Shown here: positions 1 through 44,900 of the stretch, one piece after another
How the letters are laid out: each line of letters begins with the position of its first letter
Position numbering within the stretch: the first letter of the stretch is position 1
Virus record (IMG/VR): IMGVR_UViG_3300044816_000066
Coordinates: 2,155 to 66,154 of that record
Source of the DNA: a virus
Taxonomy: Duplodnaviria > Caudoviricetes
DNA: 64,000 nucleotides
Reading direction: 5' to 3' (one strand)
Program-made: the position numbers and the translations under genes
Notes under the pieces: model-generated
Database searches by the model: none
Told to the model about the DNA's origin: nothing
The model's input: the letters and a program-made list of their open reading frames with translations, nothing else

Positions 1-2
1 GA

Positions 3-224
3 TACAGCACCGTTCTGGATTTCAAAACCGGGATGATGGGCGCGGTTCGTTACCAACTGGCGGCTTATGCCCATGGGGTTGCGTGCGGACAGCGTGCCGC
101 CGTGAAGCTCAACCGTGACGGCTCTTACGCGATGAAGTGGTTTCTTCCCGAGACGCGGCGGCATGATTTTGCCGTGTTCCAGTCAGCTCTTACCGTTTTC
201 AATGCAAAGAAGGAGAAGCAATAA
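3..224 (+). CDS. PD-(D/E)XK exonuclease, RecB/Cas4-like (5' truncated)
   Basis: Frame 3 from the window start reads YSTVLDFKTG...YQLAAY (DxK and QxxxY motifs); lies upstream of the recombinase. Confidence 0.75.
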   Translation, partial: YSTVLDFKTGMMGAVRYQLAAYAHGVACGQRAAVKLNRDGSYAMKWFLPETRRHDFAVFQSALTVFNAKKEKQ

Positions 225-940
225 TGGCAGCCCTATCGCTACCAAACGAACTCGAAACGCGAGCGCTCTCACTGACGGAGCAGGCGCAAGTACTAACGGT
301 CCGATCTCAGCCGGACTTCGAGAGGGCGGGAAAGTTCATCACGGAAGTTATCAAGCCGTTGATCAAAGAAGCCAGCGAGATTTTCGATCCGATCATCGCC
401 AAGGCTCACGAAGCCCACAAAGAGGCTATCACTCAAAAGAAGAAGATTGTCGAGCCGCTGGAGTTGGCCGAACGGACCATCAAGGGTGAAATCTCCCGCT
501 ACTGCACCGAGCAGGAGCGCGTCGCACGGGAAGCGCGGCTTGCTGCGGAGCGAGAACAGCAGAGACTACTTGACGAACAGATCGAGCGCGAAGTCGAAGC
601 GGCGGAGGAAATGGCCAAGGCGTTCGGTGACGCTCCGGAGCAAGTGGAGGCCGAAGTCAAGGCCATCATCGAACAGCCGCGCGTTTACCCTCCGACTCCC
701 ATGCCGGCCGTTCGACTGATGCCGGTGAAGGGCGTCTCGACGGTAGACGTTTACAGCGCCGAAGTGGTGAACATCCGCGAGTTGTGTCGGGCTGTTGCCG
801 ACGGGCGCGCAGGGGCAAATCTAGTTCTTCCGAATCAGCCCGCATTGAACGGACTAGCACGGTCACTGAAGGAAGGCCTTAGCGTGCCCGGAGTGCGGTG
901 CATCAAAACGAAACAGGTAAGCGCAAGGAGCGCTCGATAG
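224..940 (+). CDS. Coiled-coil early protein, Gp157/Gam-like
   Basis: Long charged helix, C-terminal VPGVR motif, position between nuclease and annealase. Confidence 0.55.
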   Translation: MAALSLPNELETRALSLTEQAQVLTVRSQPDFERAGKFITEVIKPLIKEASEIFDPIIAKAHEAHKEAITQKKKIVEPLELAERTIKGEISRYCTEQERVAREARLAAEREQQRLLDEQIEREVEAAEEMAKAFGDAPEQVEAEVKAIIEQPRVYPPTPMPAVRLMPVKGVSTVDVYSAEVVNIRELCRAVADGRAGANLVLPNQPALNGLARSLKEGLSVPGVRCIKTKQVSARSAR

Positions 941-942
941 AC

Positions 943-1839
943 ATGGCATCAGGAACGGCAGTAACCGAAACGAACGCGGTCGCGACGGTCCCGCAACCTT
1001 CCACGATTTACCACTCGCCCGACGCGGAGCGCTTCGCGATGGAGCAGCGCATGGCACGGGTATTCGTCACCAGCGGATTGTTTGGCGACATCAAGGGACA
1101 AAGTGCGGAGCAGTCAATCGCCCAGGCGTACGTCAAGATTGCGCTCGGCAATTCGATGGGATTCTCACCAGCGGAATCCATGCAGGGGATCGACCTGATC
1201 CAGGGCCGCCCGGCGATCAGCGCTCAGCTTCGAGCAGCGCGCATGCAGCGGGCCGGGTTCTCGTGGGCGCCCACGGCCACGGATAAGGGTTGCTGGCTGG
1301 CAATGTTCTACCAGGGCAAGCCGATCATGATTCCGCGTATCAATCCGCAGACCGGCGAGATCGTTCGGGCATCCGACGGTAGCGTAGCGCTGGAGCAGGC
1401 GATTGTCAGCTATACGGAGATCGACGCAAGGGCGGCGGGGTTAGCGGGCAAGGACAACTACAAGAAAGATCCTAGTTCGATGTACTTCGCCAGGGCGGTA
1501 ACGCGGGCGCAGCGGCGCTTCGCTCCCGGAGTGCTGAGCGGCGACATCCTCTCTCGCGAGGAAGCTTTTGATGTTCCGGTCGATGGTTACGAGGTCATCG
1601 CCGAACCTCGATCCAAGTACGAGACGTTGCCAGCGAAGACGGAGGTGGAAGCCGAAGCACTGCAACCCATCACGGATGGTCAGTGCAAGCGATTCTACGC
1701 CATCGCGAGTGAATCCGGATGGCAGACCAGCGAGACAGACAAGCTCCTGGCCGCCAACGGCTGGACATCTGCAAAGCAGATCACGCGCGACAAGTACGAC
1801 GCCATCATCGAAGCCTTGCAGGGCGGAAAAGATTCGTAG
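943..1839 (+). CDS. RecT-like single-strand annealing protein
   Basis: VKIALGNSMGFSPAESMQGIDLIQGRP and PSSMYFARAV motifs; ATG 943 follows AGGAG. Confidence 0.7.
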   Translation: MASGTAVTETNAVATVPQPSTIYHSPDAERFAMEQRMARVFVTSGLFGDIKGQSAEQSIAQAYVKIALGNSMGFSPAESMQGIDLIQGRPAISAQLRAARMQRAGFSWAPTATDKGCWLAMFYQGKPIMIPRINPQTGEIVRASDGSVALEQAIVSYTEIDARAAGLAGKDNYKKDPSSMYFARAVTRAQRRFAPGVLSGDILSREEAFDVPVDGYEVIAEPRSKYETLPAKTEVEAEALQPITDGQCKRFYAIASESGWQTSETDKLLAANGWTSAKQITRDKYDAIIEALQGGKDS

Positions 1840-1867
1840 TTGAATCTAGCACATAAAGGAGGAACGC

Positions 1868-2022
1868 GGAACCAGTGAATTGACCGAGCGCGGCCTGTCA
1901 GGGCGATCTGACAGCGCCGCAGGATCATCGACATGCCAGCAAGGCATCGAGCTGGCGGTACCTAAGCTGGATTCGGACTTGTCGATGGTCCTGCAGCGCG
2001 ACCTTAGCGCGAGAACGGTTCC
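1868..2022 (+). ncRNA. Candidate structured RNA (element A)
   Basis: Closing GGAACC/GGTTCC; hairpin 1895-1914; 15-bp stem 1919-1933/1980-1994 with inner hairpin 1935-1956; hairpin 1997-2011. Confidence 0.55.
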
Positions 2023-2045
2023 ATGTAGTGAAAGGACTAATCAAA

Positions 2046-2225
2046 ATGAAAACATTCAAGATCTTACTTCGCGGGCAAAGCACGGTAACGGTGAGCGCCG
2101 CGTCTTTCTCCCTCCAACTCTTTTTCAATAGCCGTTGGTACGTATTCGCTGACGGCGGGAACATCGAAGTAGCCCGGTTTGCGCAAGGTGAAGTGCAGGC
2201 GATCGGCGAGTATTCCCAAGCATAG
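2046..2225 (+). CDS. Small hypothetical protein
   Basis: ATG preceded by AAAGGA. Confidence 0.6.
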   Translation: MKTFKILLRGQSTVTVSAASFSLQLFFNSRWYVFADGGNIEVARFAQGEVQAIGEYSQA

Positions 2226-2254
2226 AAGCCGGAATCAAATCTGACAGGAGACGA

Positions 2255-3325
2255 ATGCCAGTTGAGCACCATCGCAATCACCCAGACGTACATCATCCCT
2301 GGTCGGGCTGGTCTGAAGATCAGACGCTCCACGTGGCGACGGCATACTCCAACCCATTCCGGTGGAGGATGCGCCGCGAATTGGCGAACGATTTCCGCCG
2401 GCATATGGGCCACTCCGCAAACGTCGATCTCCACTTCGGAGAACTGGCTTACGCTAACCGCCCATTCGAAGTTACGGACGTAACCAAACATCCGAATGAT
2501 GTTCAGATGCGCACGCAGAATGAACTGTTTCACAAGGAAAACATTCTCAATCGCGTCATTACCCACTTTCCGGCCGATTGGAAGTACGGAGCGATCATCG
2601 ATGCCGATTTCCACTTCACGCGCCACGACTGGGCTCTGGAGGCCGTGCATCAACTCCAGCACTACGACTTCGTTCAGTTGTTCTCCAGCTACGTCGATAT
2701 CACTGGCGACGTCTACGGACAAAAGGACTTACCGATCCGGGCTAACACGGGCTTCTTTTTCAATTACATCAACAACGGATACAAGGTCAGCCCGCAGTAC
2801 CACAACACGCACATCAAGTGCGGCAAGGGCAAATACGAGGATTCGGTATTCATGCGCGGCGTGGGCGCCACCGGTGGAGCATTCGCGTTCAGGCGCTCCG
2901 CATTCGATGCTGTCGGCGGCCTGCTGGATCGCTGCATCCTTGGGCACGCAGACTGGTACATGGCGTTCGGCCTGGTGAACGTGGAGCCACCGGACATTCA
3001 TTCCCAGAAGTATCACCCGGACTATAAGCACTACATCCGCACCTGGATCGAGCGCGCCAAGGTGCTGCAAAAGAACATTGGCTACGTGGATGGAATGGCC
3101 GTCCACAACTTCCACGGATCCAAGACGCGCCGGGCTTATTCAAGTCGCGATGTGATTCTGGCGAATAACGAGTACTCTCCTTACGTTGACGTGCATCAGG
3201 ATTACCAAGGGATCTGGCAACTGAATCCCAACAAGCCAAAGTTGCGGGATGACATTCGGCAGTACTTCATTCAGAGATCAGAGGATGACGCGAATCTGTA
3301 CTCGCCGGAAAAGACGATGGTGTGA
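2255..3325 (+). CDS. GT-A glycosyltransferase-like protein
   Basis: HKENILN...WKYGAIIDADFHF (DxD after a hydrophobic strand), GGAFAFRRSAFDAVGG, GHAD, C-terminal HNFHG. Confidence 0.65.
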   Translation: MPVEHHRNHPDVHHPWSGWSEDQTLHVATAYSNPFRWRMRRELANDFRRHMGHSANVDLHFGELAYANRPFEVTDVTKHPNDVQMRTQNELFHKENILNRVITHFPADWKYGAIIDADFHFTRHDWALEAVHQLQHYDFVQLFSSYVDITGDVYGQKDLPIRANTGFFFNYINNGYKVSPQYHNTHIKCGKGKYEDSVFMRGVGATGGAFAFRRSAFDAVGGLLDRCILGHADWYMAFGLVNVEPPDIHSQKYHPDYKHYIRTWIERAKVLQKNIGYVDGMAVHNFHGSKTRRAYSSRDVILANNEYSPYVDVHQDYQGIWQLNPNKPKLRDDIRQYFIQRSEDDANLYSPEKTMV

Positions 3326-3485
3326 GGTGGGCGGGATGATCGGGAAACCGATCGCCCTGCAAGTCCGATCGGCGCTGCCACAGAAAGGATTGGCTTCTTC
3401 CGGGGGGAGGAAATACCAATCTTGCCGATCGGACTCGCAGGGCGAGCACTTGAAGGCCGCTGGCTGGCGGTGCCCGTCTCAGCCA
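3323..3485 (+). ncRNA. Candidate structured, tRNA-like RNA (element B)
   Basis: Closing stem 3323-3332/3472-3481 followed by GCCA; 6-bp GAAA hairpin 3338-3353; 20-bp stem 3354-3373/3424-3443 (1 mismatch) with further apical stems. Confidence 0.65.
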
Positions 3486-3489
3486 TTTA

Positions 3490-3516
3490 GGGAGTTTACG
3501 GGGCTCCCGTGTTTTT
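3490..3516 (+). terminator. Intrinsic terminator-like hairpin
   Basis: GGGAGTTT-acg-GGGCTCCC followed by GTGTTTTT. Confidence 0.5.
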
Positions 3517-3528
3517 GAAAGGAACGTG

Positions 3529-3783
3529 ATGGACATAGCAATAAACGAACAAGCGCCGATCAACGTCATCGAGCATCGCATCGTCAACCGCGTTCAGAAA
3601 TGCTCCCGAGATCAGAAGTGCTTCTCGATGCAGCGATGCCTTGACGATGCCCTTCCCAAGCATGGCTTGCGGCTACAGGGCTATCGCGGGGCCGATGGTG
3701 AAACGATCTGGTCAGTCGTCTATCACGTTGCCGGGCTGGATCAGCATTGTTGGGTTTGTCCGTTTTGCTTGGGGGAATTATGA
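3529..3783 (+). CDS. Hypothetical protein (C-terminal CxxC)
   Basis: RBS AAAGGA; ATGA coupling to the next gene. Confidence 0.6.
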   Translation: MDIAINEQAPINVIEHRIVNRVQKCSRDQKCFSMQRCLDDALPKHGLRLQGYRGADGETIWSVVYHVAGLDQHCWVCPFCLGEL

Positions 3784-4376
3784 TGCAGGCCGAGATAGAC
3801 CGAATCGCGGAAAACGTTGAACGCCTGGCCACCAAGCAGGAGATCCGCGCGGCGCTGGATCGATTGGCCGCGGCGGATTTCCCTGAGCCGAAATGCACAT
3901 GCACGCAAACTGATGTTGATGCGTTCGACACCCGAACGTGTGAGTTTTGCAACCACGACAGCGCGTGGAATTGCGAGCTACGAAATGCTGTATTGGCCAT
4001 CGAGAATAATGCCGCTCGCTGGCTGGAGTTTCTGTTGAAGGAGACCGAATGCCAAGGTGGAGGGCTTGCTGTGAGCCTGACTCCAGAATACGTGACACCG
4101 AACTACATGAACGTGACAGTACGCGGCACCGGCGGATTCGACAGGACGGTTAACCATCCGGCGCACTACGGCGGCGCCGATGATCCCTACGAAGCCATCA
4201 AGGTGATCGAGGCATTGGGCCTTTGCTTCCATTTAGGTAACGCCTTTAAGTACATTGCGCGGGCTGGGAAAAAGGGCTCCGAGATAGAAGACTTAAAGAA
4301 GGCCGCATGGTATTTACAGCGGAGGATTGACCGGCTGGAGACTCTGGCTAGTGCGGATGACGGGCGGGCCAAATGA
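3780..4376 (+). CDS. DUF3310 (SaV-like) domain protein with N-terminal Cys motif
   Basis: VNHPAHY...EAIKVIE...GNAFKYIARAGKKG..EDLKKAAWYL. Confidence 0.85.
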   Translation: MMQAEIDRIAENVERLATKQEIRAALDRLAAADFPEPKCTCTQTDVDAFDTRTCEFCNHDSAWNCELRNAVLAIENNAARWLEFLLKETECQGGGLAVSLTPEYVTPNYMNVTVRGTGGFDRTVNHPAHYGGADDPYEAIKVIEALGLCFHLGNAFKYIARAGKKGSEIEDLKKAAWYLQRRIDRLETLASADDGRAK

Positions 4377-4765
4377 AGACTCTCAATGATGTCCAGGTGG
4401 GCGATGCGGAAATAATTATAGCCCTAACTCAGAAAGTCATGCAATGGAAAGTAACCAATCCCGGACCCCATCCGAGAGGGCATCTCTTTAGTTACGAGTT
4501 GAAAACACCAGAAGGGAAGACGCTTTATTGCCGAGACGGAATGGGTAGCCTTCCCGGCTCTTGCTGGAATCCGCTCGAATCGATCGCCGATGCGTGGATG
4601 ATCGTGGAACGTATGTATGAACTGGGCTGGACTTGGGAGATCTCCAGAACGGCGAATCCGAAATGCGTTTTTTATTCCGACCGAGAACCATTCGTCGCTT
4701 GTTCATTTGCCGAGTCCGCTCCGCGTGCCATCTGCCTTGCGGCATTGAAGGCGGTGGGCTTGTGA
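4373..4765 (+). CDS. Phage ABA-sandwich (BC1872-like) protein
   Basis: WNPLESIADAWMIVE...ESAPRAICLAALKA. Confidence 0.75.
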   Translation: MKTLNDVQVGDAEIIIALTQKVMQWKVTNPGPHPRGHLFSYELKTPEGKTLYCRDGMGSLPGSCWNPLESIADAWMIVERMYELGWTWEISRTANPKCVFYSDREPFVACSFAESAPRAICLAALKAVGL

Positions 4766-4902
4766 CCGAGAAGCAAGGTGAAACGATCATCTCCCAACTG
4801 ACCGGCATATCAATCATTCTGGTTTGCATGGTGCTCATTTTGGTCATTGGTCAGTTAGGGCTCAGTTCAGTGCTCTATTCGATTTTGGGGAAGATTCGAT
4901 GA
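4762..4902 (+). CDS. Small membrane protein
   Basis: GTGA-coupled; single hydrophobic span. Confidence 0.5.
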   Translation: MTEKQGETIISQLTGISIILVCMVLILVIGQLGLSSVLYSILGKIR

Positions 4903-4949
4903 CTTTGTTGGATACTTGCGCGGCGGCCAAGCTCACAAGGTAGTTCAGA

Positions 4950-5162
4950 TTGAGGAATCCATGCGCGACGGAGCGCCACTACAGCCCGAAGGAGATCGCC
5001 GAAATATGGAACTTCGACATCACAACTATCCGGCGAATCTTCAAGGACGAACTTGGAGTGATATGCCTACCGGCGACTACCACTCGCGGCAAACGCAAAT
5101 ACGAAAGCATTCGCATTCCTCAGTCGGTTTTCGACCGCGTGTATCGACGGCTGTTGAAATAG
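4950..5162 (+). CDS. Excisionase-like HTH protein
   Basis: HYSPKEIAEIWNFDITTIRRIF...SIRIPQS, directly upstream of the integrase. Confidence 0.75.
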   Translation: MRNPCATERHYSPKEIAEIWNFDITTIRRIFKDELGVICLPATTTRGKRKYESIRIPQSVFDRVYRRLLK

Positions 5163-5167
5163 TCTCC

Positions 5168-6283
5168 ATGCCCCTTTTCCGCCGACATCTCAAGAGCTGT
5201 AAGCACTCCAATAAGGGCCGGGATTACACCCGATGCAATTGCCCCATCTGGGCCGACGTCAGAATTGAAGGATTCCCGCGCGTCCTCAAGAGTACGGGCG
5301 TACGCGATTGGAATAAGGCCGAGCGGATCTATGAAGATTGGCAAGCGGGGAATATTGGTAAGTCTGCTTCCAAGATCACGATTTCCGATGCCGTGGAGCA
5401 ATACCTGATCCTCCGCAAGGACAACATTTCTCCCTCCACCATCGACAGCTATCAAGCAACGTTGCGGGCACTCGGGAGGAAGTATCCGGGCCGGACGGTC
5501 CAGTCGCTCACCTTGAATGACCTGATCCACTTTGAGAAATCCCGCAACCTTGCCGCCAGCACGGAGCGCAAGGACATTGAATGTCTGAAGATTTTCTACA
5601 AGCACGCCATCACTCACAAGTGGACCGGCGAAAACGTCGCGCTCAAAATGGAGCACCCAAAGGATTACCGGCGCCCGACGCTTCCCTTCTCTGATGCCGA
5701 AGTGTACGCACTGCTTTCGGCATGCGACCGGATCGAAGAGAGCAACAAGAAACGACAGCCGCGCACCCGACTGCTAGCGAAGGCCCGCGTTCTAGTTCTG
5801 CTCAATACCGGGCTCCGCGTCTCGGACGTGATGCAACTCAAGCGATCCCAGGTTAATTTTGAGACCGGCGACATTCTCATCCGGGTAATGAAAACCGGGA
5901 CAGATATGTACCTGTGGGTTGACTCCGATGTTATCGATACCCTGCGTGCGATTCCAGGCGATGGCGAATACTTTTTCTGGTCCGGCAAGTCCGATATCCA
6001 TGTGGCTTGTAATGTGGCGCGACTGTCGCTCTCGCGGGTTGCCAAGATTGCGAATGTTTCGGATGCTCACCCGCATCGCTTCCGTGATACATTCGCCGTC
6101 CGCCTGCTGGATTCCGGGGCGGACATGAGGACGGTGCAACTCCTCCTCGGGCATTCTTCGATCACCACAACGGAGCGGTATTATGCGCCGTTCGTTAAAA
6201 GCTCACAGCGCCGAATTACTGACGCGCTGAAGAAAATGCACGGCAAAGTGGGTGCGGTAAAAGATTCATATAAAGATACGTAA
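5168..6283 (+). CDS. int: Tyrosine integrase
   Basis: TGLRVSD, K, HRFRDTFA, LLGH...TERYY catalytic set; N-terminal RRH..C.H....C.CPIW. Confidence 0.95.
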   Translation: MPLFRRHLKSCKHSNKGRDYTRCNCPIWADVRIEGFPRVLKSTGVRDWNKAERIYEDWQAGNIGKSASKITISDAVEQYLILRKDNISPSTIDSYQATLRALGRKYPGRTVQSLTLNDLIHFEKSRNLAASTERKDIECLKIFYKHAITHKWTGENVALKMEHPKDYRRPTLPFSDAEVYALLSACDRIEESNKKRQPRTRLLAKARVLVLLNTGLRVSDVMQLKRSQVNFETGDILIRVMKTGTDMYLWVDSDVIDTLRAIPGDGEYFFWSGKSDIHVACNVARLSLSRVAKIANVSDAHPHRFRDTFAVRLLDSGADMRTVQLLLGHSSITTTERYYAPFVKSSQRRITDALKKMHGKVGAVKDSYKDT

Positions 6284-6328
6284 TGACTTGCTTTTGTATG
6301 TTAACGCGCGTAGAATGAGTTAATAGCA

Positions 6329-6352
6329 GGCGGAAGCCAGTGGGTGTCGAAC
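6329..6352 (-). other. attP core resembling the 3' end of tRNA-Sec
   Basis: Minus strand reads G-TTCGACA-CCCAC-TGGCTTCC-G-CC (T-loop, 5-nt T strand, 8-nt acceptor strand, G73, CC); 45 nt after the int stop. Confidence 0.7.
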
Positions 6353-6484
6353 TTAATCGTTTACCTCCCAACTAACTGAAACCTGCTCCAGTAAGCGGAT
6401 CGCCAATAGGCGGCAACCCGCAGAAAGGGCAAGGATGCGCTATTTGGATTCACGGCTAGATACGTGGGCGCGTCCGTCTGACGT

Positions 6485-7300
6485 TTGAAAAACACATACG
6501 AAGTTAGGGGCGAAACGGTCGCCATTAATCTTGCGGGTGGACTGGAATGTCTGATCGACGAGAAGGCTTTGCCGCGTGTATCACGGGCTGCGGGCACTCA
6601 CTCCTGGTTCGCCAAGCTTGACACACGAGACGGGATTTATCGGGTGGTGGCGAAGCTCACCGATGGTGAGATTTTCGTCCGGCGCGTAGTCGCCGAGGCC
6701 TCAGCCGAAATGGTCGTCTCTATGAAGAATCGGGACGGGCTAGACTGTCGGGCCGCAAACCTTAAAATCTCATTCATACCGCCGCGGATTCAGGCACCAC
6801 TTATTGTTCCTCCGCAAGTCCCGGAAGGCGCTCAGCTTGTCCCGCTGAACAGGAGTTTCGCAATCGTCGATTCTGCCGATGCGGAGATGGTTCGGAAGTA
6901 CCGCTGGAAAGAGAACCAAGGGTACGCTGTCCGCTCTAACGGGCGCGCCGCAACGCTGAGTATGCACCGGCTGATAATCGGCGCGGTGGATGGTCAATAT
7001 GTTGACCACATCAACGGCAATCCGCTGGACAATCGCCGATCCAATCTCCGCGCCTGCACGAATGCCGAGAACTCTTGGAACGCCAAAAAACAGAAGCGAT
7101 CGAAGTCGCCACTGAAGGGCATAACGCTCAATAAATCCACCGGAAAGTTTCGCGCCCAGATCATGATTAATTACAAAAAGATCAACCTGGGCGACTACCC
7201 TACGCCTGAAGAGGCTGCGCGTGTCTATGACGTTGCAGCCCGCCAACACTTCGGCGCATTCGCCCGACCGAACTTTCCCGCACCCGAGCCAGCGGCATGA
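6485..7300 (+). CDS. HNH endonuclease with AP2 domain
   Basis: SMHRLI...VDHINGNPLDNRRSNLR...N; KFRAQI....INLGDY.TPEEAARVYD. Confidence 0.9.
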   Translation: MKNTYEVRGETVAINLAGGLECLIDEKALPRVSRAAGTHSWFAKLDTRDGIYRVVAKLTDGEIFVRRVVAEASAEMVVSMKNRDGLDCRAANLKISFIPPRIQAPLIVPPQVPEGAQLVPLNRSFAIVDSADAEMVRKYRWKENQGYAVRSNGRAATLSMHRLIIGAVDGQYVDHINGNPLDNRRSNLRACTNAENSWNAKKQKRSKSPLKGITLNKSTGKFRAQIMINYKKINLGDYPTPEEAARVYDVAARQHFGAFARPNFPAPEPAA

Positions 7301-7461
7301 CCGAGCTCTACACCATAGAATTTTCCGACGGAGACGTCCTGGCCACGTATCACGAAGAATTCGCCGTATTCGAAACACGCGCCGAAGCTGAGGCCAAGAA
7401 AAACCAATTCGACATCGCGGATGGGCCGAAAATCGTCCGCTGGGTGAAAGGGGCTCTATGA
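7297..7461 (+). CDS. Small protein (54 aa), paralog 1; not in ORF track
   Basis: MTELYTIEFSDGDVL...VFETRAEAE...IVRWVKGAL; ATGA-coupled at both ends. Confidence 0.8.
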   Translation: MTELYTIEFSDGDVLATYHEEFAVFETRAEAEAKKNQFDIADGPKIVRWVKGAL

Positions 7462-7634
7462 CGGAACTGTTCATCGTGGAGTACGAAGACGGCGACATCC
7501 TCGGCGATGACGACGGAATCACCGTGTTTACTACCCGCGAAGACGCTGAACTTGCGATCCACAAAATCGAAGGCTGTCGCGTCGGTGGAGAACCAAGACT
7601 CGCCATCGTTCGCTACGTGAAGGAGTCTCTATGA
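7458..7634 (+). CDS. Small protein (58 aa), paralog 2; not in ORF track
   Basis: MTELFIVEYEDGDIL...VFTTREDAE...IVRYVKESL; ATGA-coupled. Confidence 0.8.
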   Translation: MTELFIVEYEDGDILGDDDGITVFTTREDAELAIHKIEGCRVGGEPRLAIVRYVKESL

Positions 7635-8293
7635 ACCCCTGCTGCCTCAAAACGGTCGAGCGCTGCGCCGGAATAGTGGAGGGCGTTAATACAAACAAAA
7701 AAATGCTTTCCGATCTCTTCAAATCCATCGCTGAAACCATCCGTGCCGAATTCCTCGAGCCCACGCCGGAACCACTTCAGCCGGGAGATATCGTTACCTC
7801 TGAAGACTGGGGAGACCGCAACGGGCTAACCATAGACACTATTCTGTACAAGGACGACCTGGCAATTAGGAAAGACGTTGCCATATTTAGGAACGGGAAC
7901 GGTAGCTATTACTTTCCTCTTTCAAGACTCACCAAGGTCACTGGCCCGCCCGAAACTCCCAAGCCCGCCATCAAGGTCGGGGACTTAGTAACCAGCCCGT
8001 ACTGGGATAAGCCGCGGATTGTGAAGCGCATCCATGTGCCGATTGGAGCTCCCGGTCAAGAGCCCAATGCCACGTTCGAAGACTTCTTTGGCACCCGTCC
8101 AGTCTCCGAACTGACCAAGGTCAGCCTCCCGGTTGATGGAGAATCCATCAAAATCGGCGATATCGTCAGGCACCCTGAATTTTACCTACCGCATGTGGTC
8201 GAGAAAATCATCCCGGCATGGTACGGCGCGTCTGCATTGCTGGATAACGGCTACTGGCGTCCGGTCTCCGAACTTACGAAGGTGCCCAAATGA
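7631..8293 (+). CDS. Protein with three SH3/KOW-like repeats
   Basis: Three units (L/I)xxGD(I/L)V...P(L/V)S(R/E)LTKV. Confidence 0.7.
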   Translation: MNPCCLKTVERCAGIVEGVNTNKKMLSDLFKSIAETIRAEFLEPTPEPLQPGDIVTSEDWGDRNGLTIDTILYKDDLAIRKDVAIFRNGNGSYYFPLSRLTKVTGPPETPKPAIKVGDLVTSPYWDKPRIVKRIHVPIGAPGQEPNATFEDFFGTRPVSELTKVSLPVDGESIKIGDIVRHPEFYLPHVVEKIIPAWYGASALLDNGYWRPVSELTKVPK

Positions 8294-14915: not shown

Positions 14916-14944
14916 TTGCGGAATGACCTTGGGATCAGTATGAT
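14916..14944 (+). promoter_or_regulatory. Sigma70-type promoter of the replication operon
   Basis: TTGCGG-17 nt-TATGAT, followed by leader hairpins 14954-14988 and 15000-15015. Confidence 0.6.
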
Positions 14945-15018
14945 GGTTTATGCGGGTTGGCGTGAAGCTTGCGACCTCACACCAACCCTAAAGCAATACC
15001 GGAAAGAGGTTTCCGAAA

Positions 15019-15546
15019 ATGCTCTCAATAGAGTATAACGCGCCGTCCGCGGACATCGTTCCAATCCCCACCAGGTACCGGCATTATCTCACCCGTAGCC
15101 GTCTTGAAGCACGCTGGATGGTTTTCTTCGACAACATCGATCTGAAGTTCGAGTATGAGACGGAGGGCTACCAGTTGGGCTCCGTCCGCTACCTTCCCGA
15201 TTTCTGGTTTCCTCAAATCCGGTTGTGGGCCGAGGCCAAACCGACCACACTAAAACCGGAAGAGCAGACCAAGGCAAACCTACTGGCGGTGCGCAGCGGA
15301 TTCGATGTCCTGCTGCTTGTCGGGCCGCCTGAGTGTCGCTTGTATCCCGGCGCAACGATGGACGCCGGTGAAGTCACTCACGCCTTTTATTCCCTGGACA
15401 TCCACTTTCACCGAAAACAGTTCAAGCAGGGGCGCCTATGGTCGGAGAGTGAATCCGGCGACTGGCTGGACGATGACAGCTTTACCGAGCGCTACAAGCG
15501 AGCGATGGGCGAAGCACTCAGTTACGACTTCCGGGAGGCGGCATAG
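15019..15546 (+). CDS. PD-(D/E)XK nuclease-like protein
   Basis: RSRLEARW..FFD....FEYE.EG......YLPDF.......EAKP. Confidence 0.75.
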   Translation: MLSIEYNAPSADIVPIPTRYRHYLTRSRLEARWMVFFDNIDLKFEYETEGYQLGSVRYLPDFWFPQIRLWAEAKPTTLKPEEQTKANLLAVRSGFDVLLLVGPPECRLYPGATMDAGEVTHAFYSLDIHFHRKQFKQGRLWSESESGDWLDDDSFTERYKRAMGEALSYDFREAA

Positions 15547-20019: not shown

Positions 20020-21086
20020 AAACGACAATCGCGCTACTCATCACCACTTCGTTCGCGTGCGCGGCGTTCGGGCAAACCACAAAGTCCGCAACTCCAACAA
20101 TACTGACGATAGTCGAAAAACATCAGGAGGCCATCGATTCCATCAACCGCTCCATTAAATACCTAGGAGATTCGGTTCACCTTCAGACAACTTTAATTCA
20201 AGCGGAACAAAAGAAACTCACCGAGAACGAGCAGAGGATAGAGCTTCTTAAGGGGAACGTTACTTCACTGGATAATCACTTGATTTCACATCAGGAAGAG
20301 ATCGACACGATGGCTAGGACGCTTAGGTCGGTGGAGTCACGTGTTTATGCCCTCGAACATCCGAAGATGAATGCGCAGCTATCAACGCGGCAGTTCCGAA
20401 TAGTGAAGGCTCAGGCTATTACTCCAATGCCAAATGGTGTCATGAAGGATGGAGCTTGCATCACGCCGAATACAGATTGCCTCGTCCCATCGGGGATCGA
20501 CGTTAATGGCGGTGAAGTCTTATACCAGCACCACCCATCCGTACATCCAATACCCGACAATTGGCCAATCGTCGCTCCGCCAGTTATCGGAGCGCAACGG
20601 ATGAACATTGGTGGCAATTGCGAGGTGTTCGATGGGCAGAATTGGACCAAGATCGATTGCGGCAATATCGGCCAGCACCATGCGTTCGAGAGCAACTTGG
20701 ACAATTCGAATTACATCGGCATAGCGGATGTGGTGCCGCCAATAACGCGATCTATCAGGGTCGGAGCCTCATACACCAGCACCGACGATCCATACATGAA
20801 GTATTGCCTGCACGATTCAACTGATCCAATCGATATCCAAACCGATTGCCTTGTGATGGTCGATCCAGCAGACGGAGCGGTCACGGTGAGCATCAAACGC
20901 CCGAATGCAGCCATTGCCGCCATGCAAGCCAAACTCACACGCTACGAGGCTCTGGGCTCAGCGGCCAACCAGCTTATCAACCAGCAGAAGCAGCAACTCA
21001 TCGATGCCCACAACGCGCTGGTACTGGCGTGCTCGGCCGTGCTGGTAGCCAAGCAGCATGAGGTTTGTGGGGAGCTGGGGTATTGA
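20016..21086 (+). CDS. Secreted coiled-coil/Cys protein
   Basis: Signal peptide MKTTIALLITTSFACAAFG|Q; N- and C-terminal coiled coils; paired Cys. Confidence 0.7.
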   Translation: MKTTIALLITTSFACAAFGQTTKSATPTILTIVEKHQEAIDSINRSIKYLGDSVHLQTTLIQAEQKKLTENEQRIELLKGNVTSLDNHLISHQEEIDTMARTLRSVESRVYALEHPKMNAQLSTRQFRIVKAQAITPMPNGVMKDGACITPNTDCLVPSGIDVNGGEVLYQHHPSVHPIPDNWPIVAPPVIGAQRMNIGGNCEVFDGQNWTKIDCGNIGQHHAFESNLDNSNYIGIADVVPPITRSIRVGASYTSTDDPYMKYCLHDSTDPIDIQTDCLVMVDPADGAVTVSIKRPNAAIAAMQAKLTRYEALGSAANQLINQQKQQLIDAHNALVLACSAVLVAKQHEVCGELGY

Positions 21087-21093
21087 ATCCCAC

Positions 21094-21291
21094 CTACGCG
21101 CGACAGTGAGATCGTGACTCAACCGCGCCATCGCACATAACCCCACACTTCGAGCAAGCCGTGGGTTTCTTCGGCCTCCCGCCAGCGCCACGCGACACGG
21201 ACTTCATGATCGCGCTACGCTCGGCGGGTGTGGTTTTTTCCCAACGATGCCGGACCAAGGCGGCGCCGGGTGAGAGTTTCTTCTTGCTCAT
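21094..21291 (-). CDS. Small basic protein (GGRPKK, CxxC)
   Basis: ATGA-coupled last gene of a minus-strand trio. Confidence 0.65.
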   Translation of the reverse strand: MSKKKLSPGAALVRHRWEKTTPAERSAIMKSVSRGAGGRPKKPTACSKCGVMCDGAVESRSHCRA

Positions 21292-30015: not shown

Positions 30016-30378
30016 ATGGCTAGGACAAACATTACTACTGGTGAACAAACAGTCACCGCTACCGGGGCCATCACAGGGACTCTCGACACCTCCGGGTTGA
30101 GCGGGAATTACTACATTGCGCTGCGAGTGCGCGGGTTGGTAGGTGGATCGATCCAGATCGTTTTGGAAGATACCACCAATGCCACTCCATTCGCGACCTT
30201 ATCGCAGCCTTGGAGCTACACGTTTACAACGTCTAGCTCGATTGACGGAGTGGAAGCGGGTGTCAATTCGTACCTGATTCCATTGGCGTCGTTTGGGGTC
30301 GCTAATTCGAAGTTCCGATTCAACACGCAGAAGATCACGGCATCGACTTGCTTCGTATTGGGCGAACTGGTTCAGTAA
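30016..30378 (+). CDS. Putative head decoration/structural protein
   Basis: Thr/Gly beta-rich; AAGGAG RBS. Confidence 0.6.
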   Translation: MARTNITTGEQTVTATGAITGTLDTSGLSGNYYIALRVRGLVGGSIQIVLEDTTNATPFATLSQPWSYTFTTSSSIDGVEAGVNSYLIPLASFGVANSKFRFNTQKITASTCFVLGELVQ

Positions 30379-31371
30379 TTGGCTCTCTTTACCGATTCTG
30401 ATGTGGTAACCGTCGCGGATCTCAGCGCAATCGATGCTGAGATCGTGGCGGCTGCTGCAAGCGCCGCGCCCGGGTCGCCCATCGTCCTTTCTGGCGATGG
30501 GAGTATCATCCGGCAAGCATGGTCGGAAGTCGGAGTCATGATCCTAGAGGATCAGCAGCTTTATAACACCTACTACGGCTATCAGAGCACACCGGGCGGG
30601 GCCGCTTATGCGGTCTCAATCGTTGGAACGGCCGGCCGTTCGCAGGCCCGGTTGCGGCTCAATCAAATCGTTGTCGATTTCTCTTATGGCAATGTGATTT
30701 CGGCGATGAAGCAGTGGATCGCCTACTACGCACTGTACTTGTTTTACCGCGATGCTTCCGTCCGCAAGTCGGTAAAGAAAGAAGATCGGCTGAGCGACAA
30801 GCGCGACATGTTTGAGATCATGGCGAAGAAGCGCCGGTCGAACATCCGCAATATCGGGATCCCGTTCGTGGCCCAGATGATGGAGTGTCCTGGAGCGCTA
30901 CACGCCTTCAATCCGGGCACGTGGGGAGCGGCCAATCTTTCCAACGTCACGCTGGGATCGGCAACTCAGCAGATCGTCTTCGTGGCGATTACCTATATTG
31001 ACCGAAGTCTTTACGGCGGCCCTGGAATCCTCAACCTTAACGGGGAAAGCGGGCCGAGCGCCAAACTGCAATTCACCATCACGGCCAATTCAGTGCTTGG
31101 TGTGTCCATCGCTTCCCTGATTCCGCCTAACGGCGTGGATGATCCGGTTGGTACGGCCGATGGGCTCTGGGTGCCACTCAACGCAACGGGTTGGAATGTT
31201 TACGTAGGTGCGAGCGCTACAGTGATGTACCTCCAGAATGCGACACCGATCCCGATTGCGACCAAGACATATCAATTGGCGGCGGCTCCGGTTCTATCTG
31301 GAACGCTCTTGGGAACCGGGCAATTTAGCAACTTGAACTTGGTGTTTGCGCGAACGATCAACCGGATGTAG
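30379..31371 (+). CDS. Head-tail adaptor-like protein with beta-rich C-terminal domain
   Basis: Synteny; helical N-half; GESGPS and GWNVYVG motifs. Confidence 0.6.
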   Translation: MALFTDSDVVTVADLSAIDAEIVAAAASAAPGSPIVLSGDGSIIRQAWSEVGVMILEDQQLYNTYYGYQSTPGGAAYAVSIVGTAGRSQARLRLNQIVVDFSYGNVISAMKQWIAYYALYLFYRDASVRKSVKKEDRLSDKRDMFEIMAKKRRSNIRNIGIPFVAQMMECPGALHAFNPGTWGAANLSNVTLGSATQQIVFVAITYIDRSLYGGPGILNLNGESGPSAKLQFTITANSVLGVSIASLIPPNGVDDPVGTADGLWVPLNATGWNVYVGASATVMYLQNATPIPIATKTYQLAAAPVLSGTLLGTGQFSNLNLVFARTINRM

Positions 31372-41972: not shown

Positions 41973-44900
41973 TGTCTTTCACGATCTATTCTGGGAAGGA
42001 AGGTAATTCTCCCAAGCGCCCGCTCTTTCTAGTCTCTATCGTGGCACCGGACGGAGACGTGTGCCTGCTTACCACGGTTCCGTATATCGGCACGACGGAC
42101 ATCGTTTACAACTCAAGCACCTATTTGGCACGCATCCAATCGAACACGTTTCAGCCCATCCAAGCCATGAGCCCGCAGGGATACGACACCGTGCCCGGTT
42201 TCTCCATGACGATCAACGATGGAGACAAGTTCATCTGGACCAACCATTGCTTGCAACACGGATGGCGCGGCTCTGCCGTAACGTTAACGGTCATCCTTTG
42301 GGATGTGGTGGCGAATCAATACTCCACCGATTCCCTCAACTGGACCTTCATCGGCGGGAATCCGGGATACGATCATTCAAGCGGTACTGTCAATTTCAGC
42401 ACCAGTTCATCAACAAACTTCACGCGGCTGAAACTTCCCAGTATCGCGATTCAGTATCGCTGTCCGTGGGACTTCCCTACTACTTACCTACAGCGGCTGG
42501 ACGGTCTGATAAACCCGTCCTCGCTCTTTTACCAGTGCGGCTATTCGGCGGATGTCAATGCCGGAGTAGGCAACCTGATCGCGAGCACCACGCTATCGGG
42601 GGCGATTGCAACCACGGGCGCAACGTCCTGCACTGTGGCATCTGCCACGGGCTTCCCCGCGGTTCCGTTTCAGGCCGTAGTTGGCTCTGAGGAGTTGCTG
42701 GTGACGTTGGTTGCCGGAACCACGCTGACCATCGCGCGCGGCCGGCATCTGACTACGCCAGCAACGCATGGTTCAGGATCTCCGTTTCTGGTTCCATATA
42801 CGAAATGCGAGTTGGTCAGGAGTTCGGCCGATCTTTCCGTGGGCTGCATGGCGCGGCTTGGAAATCACTCTACAACTTCAGTGGCGCCCGATGGCGACAT
42901 TGACCATGACATCGCCGGGCACTTAACCGGGAGGTACGGTGGTGTCACTTGGATTGCACCGTCGCAAGGATTCACTGGAAAGCAGTTCGTTAGCGGGAAC
43001 AGGGTTTTTGGCTTCAATAGCCCAAACACGGCCATTGCGGGCGACTACTACAACATGGTTTATGGCACGCAATGGGTGGATTGTGCGGTCCTGGCTCCCG
43101 CAGGTGATCCGAACTCCAACCGCTCGGAGTGCGTTCCATGCAGCGCATTGTACGGCCCGGCGCAAGTGCAGGTTGTTCTGGTCAATGGCGTCACGATTCC
43201 AAAGGACAATTCGGACGTTCTGAACACGTGGCGGTACATCAACCCGGGCGGACGTGCCGGACACCTCAACGGTGATGCCATTTACGATCAGCACGGCGAC
43301 CCGCACGGTTCGGTCTGCTGTTTTGAGTTTGTAGTCCCGCAGGAGATTGCCGCGGCCGGCTCCGTCCCGGAAGTAAAGGCGCTGGTCAGCGGGCCGCCAA
43401 TCCTGAATGTCTATGCGATTGCAACGGCAACGGCGTCAGGGGGCGCCATCACAGTCACGTTCACCGGCCCGAACTGGGCAGCATTCCCCGGACTGAACCA
43501 ATATACGGGCGCGTCGGTGTCCCTGATTATCGTAGGGAGCACTTGGGCGGGACTGAATAACGTCTGGACGGTTACCGCGGCTACAACCGGACCTCCCGGA
43601 ACGGTTACCTTGAACGGCGGGCCATTCACCGGAAGCGGAACGGGCGGCGCCGCGTTCTTCTATTCGACGCCAAGCCTCAGCGACACGGGCGGGAACTTGG
43701 TTAGCAATCCGTCAGTTCAGACACAGAACGTTTCCGGCCCGGCCGCGAACTTGGCCTATGTCGTCATGGATCTGATGACGTGGGGCAATATCACAATCGA
43801 CCAGTTCGATGCGCCTAGTTGGTATGCGGCGGCCCAGGTATGCGCCACGCCTGTCGCCTATATTGCGGCCAATGGATCGACACAGACACATGCGCAGTTC
43901 AAGTGTTCGTTTGCATTGAATGGATTACAGCGACAGACCCTTGCGCAAGTCATAACGGCCGTGCGCAACGCGGGCAATCTGATGGTTGCCCCTAATTCGA
44001 TAACGGGATTAATTCAGGCATTTGTCAAACAGACACTCCACGATCAGCAACCCGCGGCGATTTCTGGATCGAATTACTCTACCCCGGTCAGTTCACTTAC
44101 AGCGGCAAACACTGTTGCCAATGGATTCTATGCCTACCTGTTCGATGAGACAAATATTGACAAAGACAGTTTTCGGGTGTCGGTCACTAACATCGAATCG
44201 ACGCCAAACACAGTCAATTTCGCTTTCCAGGACGAACAAAACGGATTTCAGCAAGACTCCATCACCGAAATTGATCCCATTGCTTACCAATATTCTGGTA
44301 ACCAAGAGATCGCGGTACCCGTTCCTATACTGGGCGTTCCTAATTTCGACCAAGCGACTCGCGTATCAAACGTTCAGTTAGCCGAAGCGTTGTTCGGGAA
44401 TTTCCGAAACGATGCGGGGGGAACATTGTACTTCGAGTTTAAAACGAATCATCGCGTATTGCATTTAGCATCGCGAATAGGGCTAATTTGCGGTTTAACG
44501 TGGCAGACATTGGGAGTGGGTGTTTCCGCTCCTCAGTCTGTTCGCATTCTTTCAGTTCAACCTGACACTGACGGCGAAAGCTGGAATGTGAAAGCAGCAT
44601 GGCACCAGGATCAGTGGTACACGTATGCGTACGGTCAGAATCCGGGTGCATTCCATCGGAATCCATTGCTGTTCGCGCCGGATCGTCCTCCTTATCCGTG
44701 GCGACCGGGCGAGACTACATGGAGTCCAAACGATGTCCTGTATCCAAACCAGTCCAGCTTCCATTTGGTAGTTGATCCATCGTCCTATCCAACTCAGGTG
44801 AAAGTGGGGGGGTTCGTTCCGGTTAATGCGCAGCAAATCACGCTTGCGCCATTGCTACCTCTCCAATGCGCGACAGCGCCAACTGGCGGGAGTATCAAAC

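Follow-up and report, generated by a model that had tools for sequence, protein, structure and literature searches.

Structured elements predicted on both sides of a putatively acquired glycosyltransferase-fold gene in a temperate soil phage

In the early region of a temperate, uncultivated soil virus, whose host probably belongs to the Bryobacterales (Acidobacteriota), two predicted structured elements, A and B, enclose a small gene cassette and share short words in both orientations, which raises the question of what the two elements are and how they came to flank one gene. Our analysis covered a window of 64 kb. The unit formed by A, the gene and B is located in the early-left recombination-to-integrase region of the phage, and the plus strand is the coding strand of all genes neighbouring A and B. 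The main genes around the unit are as follows.

224-940: exonuclease gene (PHROG 10477), upstream of the RecT-like gene
898-1839, plus strand: RecT-like annealing protein gene (PHROG 561 and 4171), the last backbone gene before element A
4916-6283: tyrosine recombinase (integrase) gene, 1.4 kb downstream of the cassette

That A and B bracket a cassette, as the sequence-only reading had it, was confirmed: a 59-aa ORF and a 356-aa gene of predicted GT-A fold lie between them.

2046-2225, plus strand: 59-aa ORF with no assigned function; its ribosome-binding site, AAAGGA, is 9 nt ahead of it
2255-3325, plus strand: 356-aa gene, predicted GT-A glycosyltransferase fold (from homologues, AlphaFold2 and Foldseek)
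3529-3783, plus strand: 84-aa Cys-rich ORF; no other gene intervenes between it and B with its terminator-like hairpin

The 356-aa protein has no sequence-profile match in Pfam, PHROGs or PDB, and its class was approached through its 952 homologues, the best of which are ~60-73% identical; the nearest protein homologues are put at 71-75%. D116-A-D118, a DxD motif, is invariant in the 29 sequences aligned. The AlphaFold2 model has a mean pLDDT of 72.3, with ~100 residues of low confidence, and the Foldseek matches listed for it in PDB are glycosyltransferases or nucleotide-sugar transferases (best E 7.8e-5, TM ~0.3). With its predicted Rossmann-like fold and DxD motif, the modelled protein has the features of a GT-A enzyme. 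The gene is widespread in otherwise unrelated contigs, mostly Bryobacterales MAGs among 50 genome loci, and tblastn against GenBank phages gave one match (39.5%, Xanthomonas phage XaC1). The 59-aa ORF displays coding-like GC by codon position (0.53/0.42/0.63); neither it nor the 84-aa ORF has a Pfam or PHROG match, and the two have the ribosome-binding region TGAAAGGA in common. No tblastn match to the 59-aa ORF was found in 78 viral loci holding homologues of the 356-aa gene, with which, in these loci, it does not travel.

Several observations suggest that this unit was acquired. The closest backbone relative, L080 (RecT 76% identical), which is the one usable relative, carries a different gene directly after RecT and has no A, cassette or B; its genes further downstream are likewise unrelated to those of this phage. 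The GC skew is negative inside the cassette and positive in its flanks. Given this gap in L080, the shift in skew and the wide occurrence of the 356-aa gene on its own, the unit looks acquired. Megablast of positions 1-8000 against GenBank phages and single-protein locus searches of viral contigs each gave no match, and RecT found distant tblastn matches only (25-32%) among GenBank phages. ARAGORN found no tRNA or tmRNA gene in the 64-kb window.

The elements themselves and their parts, as predicted by folding, are as follows.

1866-2024, plus strand: element A, intercistronic leader with predicted structure; closed by the stem 1868-1873/2017-2022, with three hairpins and a weak one inside
1892-1918, plus strand: hairpin P2 of A; 11 pairs, one bulge, GCGA loop at 1903-1906
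1914-1999, plus strand: long stem P3 of A; MFE arms 1919-1933/1980-1994, 15 bp
3326-3484, plus strand: element B, structured trailer; closing stem 3326-3334/3474-3484
3352-3445, plus strand: long stem of B; inverted repeat 3352-3373/3424-3445, 22 nt at 95%, around a branched apex of 50 nt
3497-3516, plus strand: intrinsic-terminator-like hairpin; UACGGG-GCU-CCCGUG, then UUUUU

The structured character that had been ascribed to both elements held up against shuffle controls. The region of A (1840-2046) folds at -78.9 kcal/mol (z -3.83) and that of B (3326-3529) at -103.8 kcal/mol (z -4.94), and in neither case was any of 200 shuffles as stable. When the plus strand of the whole window was scanned in stretches of 160 nt, B was the strongest outlier of the 64 kb (-5.2 sd) and A was among the top few (-3.2 sd). 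Of the inverted repeats that are 14 nt or longer, 17 across the 64 kb, only the long stems of A and B reach at least 90% complementarity. By contrast with this stability, the claim that the two have the same layout proved uninformative, a closing stem with at least three branches being present in 20.6% of 500 random 159-nt windows; the shapes also differ, [[][][][]] for A versus [[][[][]][]] for B.

In A, hairpin P2 contains the words CAGGGCGATC and CAGCGCCG, and P3, which as an inverted repeat extends over 1914-1933/1980-1999 (20 nt at 90%), ends in a 46-nt apical part that includes GCTGGCGGTACC and CCUAAG. In B, the first inner hairpin (3338-3353) carries a GAAA cap at 3344-3347, the MFE of the long stem pairs 3354-3373 with 3424-3443 (7 bp, a 1x1 mismatch, 12 bp) and is continued by an 8+7-bp apical arm, and the branched 3' hairpin (3446-3473) contains GCTGGCGGTGCC. 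The GCGA loop of A and the GAAA loop of B are GNRA-type tetraloops, and in both elements they cap the first inner hairpin on the plus strand but not on the minus strand. Folds of the minus strands are about equally stable (z -3.73 for A, -5.84 for B), so the strand assignment rests on the two tetraloops, the one terminator-like site and gene orientation. The A/C mismatch of the B long stem would become a G-U pair on the minus strand. Since no homologue exists for covariation, the structures of A and B are single-sequence predictions.

The hairpin after B (3497-3511) has the form of an intrinsic terminator, with 6 pairs (4 of them G-C), a 3-nt loop and a following TTTTT, and it overlaps an alternative hairpin at 3490-3508, so that the two are mutually exclusive. 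A scan of 9 kb with the terminator consensus found 12 sites against 9.3 expected, and because this background is high, a single site of this kind is weak evidence. Element A has neither a terminator nor an obvious helix sequestering a ribosome-binding site. No sigma-70-like promoter was found in 1840-2046, in a scan limited to that promoter type, from which host rules may differ. Clustering of GATC (Dam) sites in B was considered and set aside, as clusters of 4 per 100 nt are common across the window.

We then asked what is related to A and B. The earlier impression that they match no RNA family agrees with Rfam 15, which gave no match at the gathering score over the 64-kb window; on 1700-3700 at E <= 10, MIR918 alone appeared, at a meaningless 20.9 bits against a gathering score of 268 (E 0.68). 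No further copy of A or B was found in this phage, and the covariance models built from each do not find the other, that of B missing A at E <= 10 and that of A missing B. Across 250 fetched loci (~1.5 Mb) the two models gave no significant match, the best scores (E 0.015 for the B model, 0.0094 for the A model) falling in non-syntenic places, and host-family genomes gave none in 151 for either model and none in a set of five for the B model alone. Neither element recurs beside 208 fetched loci encoding homologues of the 356-aa protein. Searching the first 78 loci for A and B with blastn-short and nhmmer, and the four RecT relatives with blastn, gave chance-level matches only. The exact 20-base pattern of the B arm has no match in viral contigs or in genome contigs, nor have the A arms with a gap, as an exact pattern, in viral contigs. 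The 19-mer of the B P2 hairpin has one match elsewhere (L266), within apparent coding sequence and with nothing else in common, and was regarded as chance. Recurrence with covarying pairs, the mark of a riboswitch or conserved cis-regulatory RNA, was not observed.

In a comparison with 401 genomes of the likely host family, DNA similarity is confined to the coding sequence, at 2255-3300; A or B as attP was rejected, host-genome DNA matches being in coding regions only. The idea that the gene family as a whole has structured flanks was likewise rejected, as a window of z < -3 occurs upstream in 2 of 108 non-redundant loci and downstream in 4 of 108 (14/140 and 13/147 when duplicate loci are counted and this window alone serves as baseline).

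The words shared between A and B were found exactly where they had been reported. CAGGGCGATC (1899-1908) and TCGGACTTG (1973-1981) of A have their reverse complements adjacent to one another in B (3350-3368), and GCTGGCGGT(A/G)CC is present at 1951 in A and 3463 in B. An additional reverse-complement word, CAGCGCCG, links 1912-1919 of A with 3370-3377 of B, so that words from A tile 27 of the 28 nt of B 3350-3377. These cross-matches exceed controls: three exact matches of at least 9 nt arose in a fraction of 0.0017 of the dinucleotide shuffles (3000 in all) and 0.0028 of the random window pairs (2893), and the 27/28 tiling, a statistic defined after seeing the data, in none of 5794 random window pairs or 20000 shuffles. 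The cyclic order that had been read into the three words was not confirmed as informative, agreement having a chance of 1 in 2. Seven direct matches of at least 7 nt were also counted, against ~3 by a rough estimate with no computed control, and four of five direct shared words are in the same order in A and B. The words are individually frequent in this genome (CAGGGCG, 20 copies; GCTGGCGG, 22 copies). CAGGGCGATC as a phage-wide site was discarded, its other two exact copies being inside large coding sequences in unrelated context.

Taken together, we tentatively favour, at somewhat short of an even chance, the explanation that A and B are orphan RNA structures, the leader and the trailer of a gene gained by horizontal transfer, with B serving as stabiliser with a terminator and both elements as possible RNase III-type substrates. 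Both would be untranslated plus-strand structures flanking the acquired GT-A gene and the small ORF upstream of it. A would act as an intercistronic leader without a terminator, the 20-22-bp helix and branched apex of B would protect the 3' end, and the intrinsic terminator after B would close the unit. As each element has a double-stranded helix of ~20 bp, each is a plausible RNase III-type substrate; by prediction, the stems (7+12 bp in B, continued by the apical arm, and 15 bp in A, or 20 nt at 90% as an inverted repeat) reach the length set for such substrates, ~20-22 bp. The review PMC3867540 gives the idealised RNase III substrate as 22 bp and describes five RNase III processing signals in the polycistronic early precursor of T7. 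Cleavage of this type would cut the cassette message from a long early transcript, or set its stability, and a processing pair would be the most plausible surviving part of the sequence-only reading. The sharing of words is statistically odd and more than the leader and trailer explanation, taken strictly, would lead one to expect; the scrambled words may be a trace of shared origin or of patchwork copying when the junctions formed, and not a working A:B duplex. The analysis shows the predicted structures and their singularity in the window, the terminator-like site, the fold of the gene product and a lack of homologues in the searched sets; we infer plus-strand transcription, a part in processing or stabilisation, and where the common words came from.

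The strongest competitor, unlikely but with a real chance of being correct, holds that A and B are non-functional junction scars, left where illegitimate recombination or template switching accompanied capture of the gene, their stability being a by-product of inverted duplication. It would account for the orphan status of both elements in the 250 loci and 151 host-family genomes, for homology to relatives ending at the borders of the coding sequence, and for both strands folding equally, as plain inverted DNA repeats would. The layout of the shared words, frequent as they are in this genome, is also in its favour, since it ignores structural units: one word spans a hairpin loop in A, and the order is permuted. 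However, two multi-helix elements of ~160 nt seem too elaborate for simple fold-back duplication. Further points against scars are the closing stems, the GNRA-type caps, which lie on the coding strand, and the terminator located exactly after B, as well as the fact that A and B are the sole such elements in 64 kb and both flank one gene.

It is improbable, in our estimate, that a single class of cis-regulatory leader is present here twice, as the diverged copies A and B, working as an attenuator that binds a ligand or protein or else as a processive antiterminator. A would then control the 59-aa ORF and the transferase gene, and B, with its terminator, the 84-aa ORF onward. The ORF after each element does have the TGAAAGGA ribosome-binding region, B is directly upstream of a terminator whose hairpin (3497-3511) excludes another (3490-3508), the first hairpin is GNRA-capped in both, the colinearity of four of the five direct words fits common descent, and A has a motif, CCUAAG opposite CAAGG, that resembles a tetraloop receptor. 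Against this, the covariance models fail to cross-detect, neither Rfam nor the searched loci and genomes hold a relative, seven direct matches are only mildly above a rough expectation of ~3, and A has neither a terminator nor an obvious helix over a ribosome-binding site.

A role at the DNA level is highly improbable: A and B would be the ends of a mobile or invertible cassette, with the inverted words as the sites on which a recombinase, for instance the tyrosine integrase, would act. In its favour are the integrase gene 1.4 kb downstream, the wide spread of the transferase gene over otherwise unrelated contigs, and the inversion in B of words of A across ~1.4 kb (10 bp exact, 18 nt at 83%). 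But inverted matches of 9-11 nt are locally frequent, with 23 pairs in 2 kb, and the words follow neither the mirrored order of terminal inverted repeats nor the colinear order of att sites. The suggestion of mobile ends also fares badly on comparative grounds: no A- or B-like ends are found at the 208 loci with the gene, where in most close homologue loci the next ORF begins a few tens of bases past the stop; DNA similarity stops inside the coding sequence; the 59-aa ORF does not co-travel; and the enclosed protein is no transposase. Two specific candidates were examined and rejected. Integron attC sites have the core motifs R'' (RYYYAAC) and R' (GTTRRRY), and neither outer stem, GCGGAAC.../...GGTTCCA in A or GGGCGG.../...CCGTCT in B, fits both. 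An IS110-type bridge or seek RNA was dismissed because the adjoining 356-aa protein, without a Pfam match, has a predicted GT-A fold and is no DEDD/IS110 recombinase.

There is a very small chance that A and B represent an undescribed class of phage RNA, multi-helix junctions with GNRA caps acting as a matched pair, in which mutually exclusive pseudoknotted pairings, or a contact between the GAAA loop and a receptor, gate the glycosyltransferase. CCUAAG of A (1960-1965), opposite CAAGG, resembles what we take to be the 11-nt GAAA-tetraloop receptor. The scrambled, nearly complete complementarity of 3350-3377 in B to three segments of A would be the mark of these partial pairings. Processing or terminator read-through at B would in this way depend on the state of A, and the enzyme so gated would be a lysogenic-conversion glycosyltransferase.

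Coding is a remote prospect. An 83-aa ORF (1880-2131) runs across A and a 60-aa ORF (3336-3518) across B; both frames are open, and the latter has a GAGGTG ribosome-binding site. The 60-aa product has an exact self-match in the protein library (P0241), and an identical protein there means that some pipeline called the ORF as a gene. Codon-position-2 GC is atypical in both, however, at 0.55-0.57 against 0.36-0.48 in genes. The 83-aa ORF has no homologue at E <= 0.1 and overlaps the better-supported 59-aa ORF, the 60-aa ORF matches, besides itself, only a repeat-derived 247-aa sequence, and coding would leave the extreme secondary structure unexplained.

Least probable of all is the long-range RNA switch first proposed, in which an A:B duplex loops out the two genes: although 3350-3368 is exactly complementary to 1899-1908 plus 1973-1981, and 3370-3377 to 1912-1919, in a tiling unmatched in controls, the three helices cannot coexist because only the 3 nt of 1909-1911 would be there to bridge 28 bp of helix, even two would need a pseudoknot that opens the 20-bp stem of B and P2 and P3 of A, the MFE of the 1840-3530 transcript model (1691 nt) retains the local folds of A and B with only three trivial edge pairs between the ends (1850-1852 with 3526-3528), and the duplex energy, by duplexfold, a crude measure that permits very long loops, is equalled by 8-13% of random partners.

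If the leader and trailer explanation is true, a captured host-surface-modifying gene would be insulated in an early operon by RNA structure on both sides and by its own terminator. The example would come from an uncultivated Acidobacteriota phage and would add two orphan structures to the non-coding repertoire of soil phages, and the sharing of words between A and B could record how such junctions form. Known systems resemble parts of this arrangement. Like REP- or MITE-like repeats, A and B are GC-rich imperfect intergenic palindromes that share words in both orientations, but those repeats are multi-copy and A and B have no further copies in the phage, in 151 host-family genomes or in the 20-base pattern scans. 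The putL and putR RNAs of HK022, ~70-nt two-stem antiterminators clearly alike in sequence, are also a pair of structured cis-acting RNAs in phage early transcripts, upstream of terminators, whereas A and B cannot be aligned and neither covariance model detects the other element.

In T7 early mRNAs and at the lambda sib site, RNase III-type processing sets the fate of the message. The lambda sib/tI retroregulator, downstream of int, sets mRNA fate via RNase III and is, like B, a terminator-associated extended hairpin 3' of an early-left gene near the integrase module; sib acts on int, whereas B follows a glycosyltransferase-fold gene and precedes further plus-strand genes. Each RNase III site of T7 is one irregular hairpin that T7-like phages conserve and that experiments have shown to be cleaved, whereas A and B are multi-branch orphans of ~160 nt for which cleavage is predicted only. 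Like A and B, the T7 early signals are coding-strand intergenic hairpins of about two helical turns that bracket individual cistrons. Elaborate structured flanks on both sides are not known for morons, which PMC3594210 describes as having their own promoter and terminator, and no sigma-70-like promoter was recognised upstream of the cassette (1840-2046). The cassette would nevertheless resemble the morons of temperate phages in being an extra gene absent from the nearest relative, of different composition and ending in a terminator-like site of its own, and lysogenic conversion would be a fitting role for a surface-modifying enzyme encoded near the integrase.

A and B, the structured spacers 5' and 3' of the glycosyltransferase cassette, lie on a 66-kb IMG/VR viral contig, most of which is covered by the window. 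The contig has 55% G+C, and its completeness is estimated at 80. The surrounding genes are all on the plus strand, and the region is the recombination-to-integrase arm of a temperate phage:

224-940, plus: exonuclease gene
898-1839, plus: RecT-like annealing protein gene
206-nt spacer with A (1866-2024), between the RecT gene and the 59-aa ORF
2046-2225, plus: 59-aa ORF
2255-3325, plus: 356-aa ORF
203-nt spacer with B (3326-3484), between the 356-aa and 84-aa ORFs
3529-3783, plus: 84-aa Cys-rich ORF
downstream of the 84-aa ORF, plus: DUF3310 protein and ABA-sandwich protein genes
4916-6283, plus: tyrosine integrase gene

To judge from its pattern CxxxxxC...C...CWVCPFC, the 84-aa ORF may encode a small zinc-binding protein; it has no match in Pfam or PHROG. 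The stretch 1856-1882 carries a strong Shine-Dalgarno-like AAGGAGG just 5' of A's closing stem and, 12 nt further on, the two-codon mini-ORF GTG-AAT-TGA.

The spacer with A folds at -78.9 kcal/mol (z -3.83) and that with B at -103.8 kcal/mol (z -4.94), values equaled by none of 200 dinucleotide shuffles in either case; the minus strands of both elements fold about equally well. In a G+C-corrected 160-nt scan of the whole window, B was the top plus-strand fold (-5.2 sd) and A was among the top few (-3.2 sd), with the remaining outliers lying within coding sequences. The next most stable folds (30361-30560 and 44441-44600 on the plus strand, 21081-21240 and 14921-15080 on the minus strand), at about -3 to -3.7 sd, are all or mostly inside coding regions. 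Seventeen inverted repeats of at least 14 nt with partners within 120 nt occur in the window, two of which reach at least 90% complementarity; the long stems of B (22 nt, 95%, apex 50 nt) and A (20 nt, 90%, apex 46 nt) are the two best, which together with their outlying stability indicates that A and B, each a single-sequence prediction, are real and singular features flanking the same gene pair. What favours the plus strand is slight, though all in agreement: the flanking genes all lie on it, a GNRA-type tetraloop caps the first inner hairpin of each element on this strand only (GCGA 1903-1906 in A, GAAA 3344-3347 in B), and a terminator-like hairpin with U5 (3497-3516, plus strand) lies 3' of B.

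The enclosed 356-aa protein is one of a large, tightly conserved family (952 hits, many of them, including the best, 60-73% identical) in which D116-A-D118 is invariant, and it has no match among Pfam or PHROG models. A form of 318 aa, thus shorter, is in the protein library from the same contig, but homologues back the start at 2255. Its AlphaFold2 model (mean pLDDT 72.3) matched GT-A glycosyltransferases in the PDB (best E 7.8e-5, TM about 0.3), fold-level support that makes the glycosyltransferase label of the sequence-only reading a reasonable one. Homologues come mostly from Bryobacterales or Bryobacteraceae MAGs and from soil viral contigs; such MAGs make up most of the 50 genome loci, which suggests the host group. 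G+C skew is negative within the cassette and positive on either flank, weakly consistent with foreign origin. The simplest account would be that the early-left arm acquired one glycosyltransferase-fold gene at a site close to the integrase that is a common seat of lysogenic-conversion genes, and that this gene now has a structured leader, A, on one side and a structured trailer, B, with a terminator on the other.

Among the alternatives, A and B as non-functional junction scars fares best, and it draws on the words that the two elements share. Every word and coordinate in the sequence-only reading was correct, and we found a further word, CAGCGCCG, at 1912-1919, with its reverse complement at 3370-3377, such that three A words, in permuted order, together cover 27 of the 28 nt at 3350-3377 of B. 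Tiling of this extent by 8-mers was reached by none of 5794 random pairs (maximum 20) and none of 20000 shuffles of A (maximum 26); this statistic was defined post hoc, so the fair one is the occurrence of three exact A-B matches of at least 9 nt, seen in a fraction of 0.0017 of 3000 shuffles and 0.0028 of 2893 random segment pairs from the same window. These words recur often in this genome (CAGGGCG 20 times, GCTGGCGG 22 times), inverted matches of 9-11 nt form 23 pairs in 2 kb locally, and agreement of three words in cyclic order, as once remarked on, has a 1-in-2 prior. An exact 11-nt inverted match, CTTGCAGGGCG, also links the last codons of RecT (1815-1825) to the 5' arm of B (3353-3363), and GCAGGGCG is itself common, with 11 copies. 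We judge the sharing to be probably real, though modest; it is the sole remaining unexplained oddity, and on the main reading, too, common origin or patchwork copying at junctions would explain the scrambled words better than function.

A diverged pair of regulatory leaders is a less likely alternative. The supposed common layout proved uninformative, as a closing stem with at least three branches occurs in 20.6% of 500 random 159-nt windows, and the abstract shapes are unlike ([[][][][]] for A, [[][[][]][]] for B). Covariance models built from single sequences, R1 for B and R2 for A, with rough E-values from a shortened calibration, each recovered in the window nothing but the element used to build it and the reverse strand of that element, with no cross-detection at E <= 10. 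At 3490-3516, two mutually exclusive hairpins have a common GGGGCUCCC core, and the second (3497-3511) alone abuts the U-run, an arrangement used by attenuators. The apical arm of A places CCUAAG (1960-1965) opposite CAAGG (1941-1945), which we take to resemble the 11-nt GAAA-tetraloop receptor; together with the GAAA loop in B's first hairpin (3344-3347) this may be coincidence, the hexamer having a chance of about 4% in 155 nt.

Recombination sites at the ends of a mobile cassette are an unlikely alternative. Against recurrence of such ends, A and B were absent by blastn or nhmmer from the first 78 loci, and R1 and R2 did not recur over 250 loci (about 1.5 Mb; best E 0.015 and 0.0094, non-syntenic). 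The loci encoding homologues comprised 78 viral, 80 metagenome (a collection searched by protein) and 50 genome loci. Neither model matched in a sample of 151 host-family genomes, nor did R1, used alone, in 5 genomes. A DNA search of 1-8000 matched 36 of 401 host-family genomes, always inside coding regions (for example, the transferase, 2255-3300) and never in A or B, and exact-pattern scans gave one 19-mer, in coding sequence and judged chance. Rfam gave no match at the gathering score across the window, in line with the sequence-only reading, which recognised no RNA family, and only a meaningless miRNA-model match on 1700-3700; no tRNA or tmRNA was found in the window. A and B are orphans, and the collection of their homologues proposed earlier came back empty from these loci and genomes. 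Strongly structured flanks are not a trait of the transferase family: a window at z < -3 lies upstream of the gene in 2 and downstream in 4 of 108 non-redundant loci, and at most close loci the next ORF begins within a few tens of bases past the transferase stop. In the closest backbone relative (L080, RecT 76% identical), RecT is followed directly by an unrelated gene, without a structured spacer. A tblastn search of the 78 viral loci with the transferase gene returned nothing for the 59-aa and 84-aa ORFs. Long near-perfect hairpins (about 26-30 bp) lie directly 3' of the homologue at three unrelated loci (L159 2560-2625, L064 3368-3465, L002 4150-4340), without sequence in common with B.

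The long-range A-B switch put forward in the sequence-only reading finds its basis in the complementary words and is disfavoured by energy and geometry. Both elements retain their local folds in the minimum free energy structure of the entire 1840-3530 RNA, linked only by 3 trivial pairs at the outer intergenic edges (1850-1852 with 3526-3528), and 8-13% of random partners equal or better the duplex energy. The complementary words are contiguous on B, and on A a gap of 3 nt separates 1899-1908 from 1912-1919, although these two would have to pair at opposite ends of a 28-bp helix; at most two helices could form together, as a pseudoknot, at the cost of melting B's 20-bp stem and P2 and P3 of A; selection for pairing would not account for all three words. 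Small proteins are likewise an unlikely alternative: the ORFs across A (83 aa) and B (60 aa) show unusual GC at codon position 2 and have no true homologues.

If the cassette was captured and framed in this way, processing or stabilisation of its message would be the most likely role of A and B, by analogy with the T7 early transcript, whose five RNase III processing signals are noted in PMC3867540. Each element is predicted to form about two helical turns, as in the idealised RNase III substrate of that source, which points to such a role. Compared with the moron as defined in PMC3594210, with its own promoter and its own terminator, the cassette would match by half: a terminator-like site is present, and no sigma-70-like promoter was recognised in 1840-2046.
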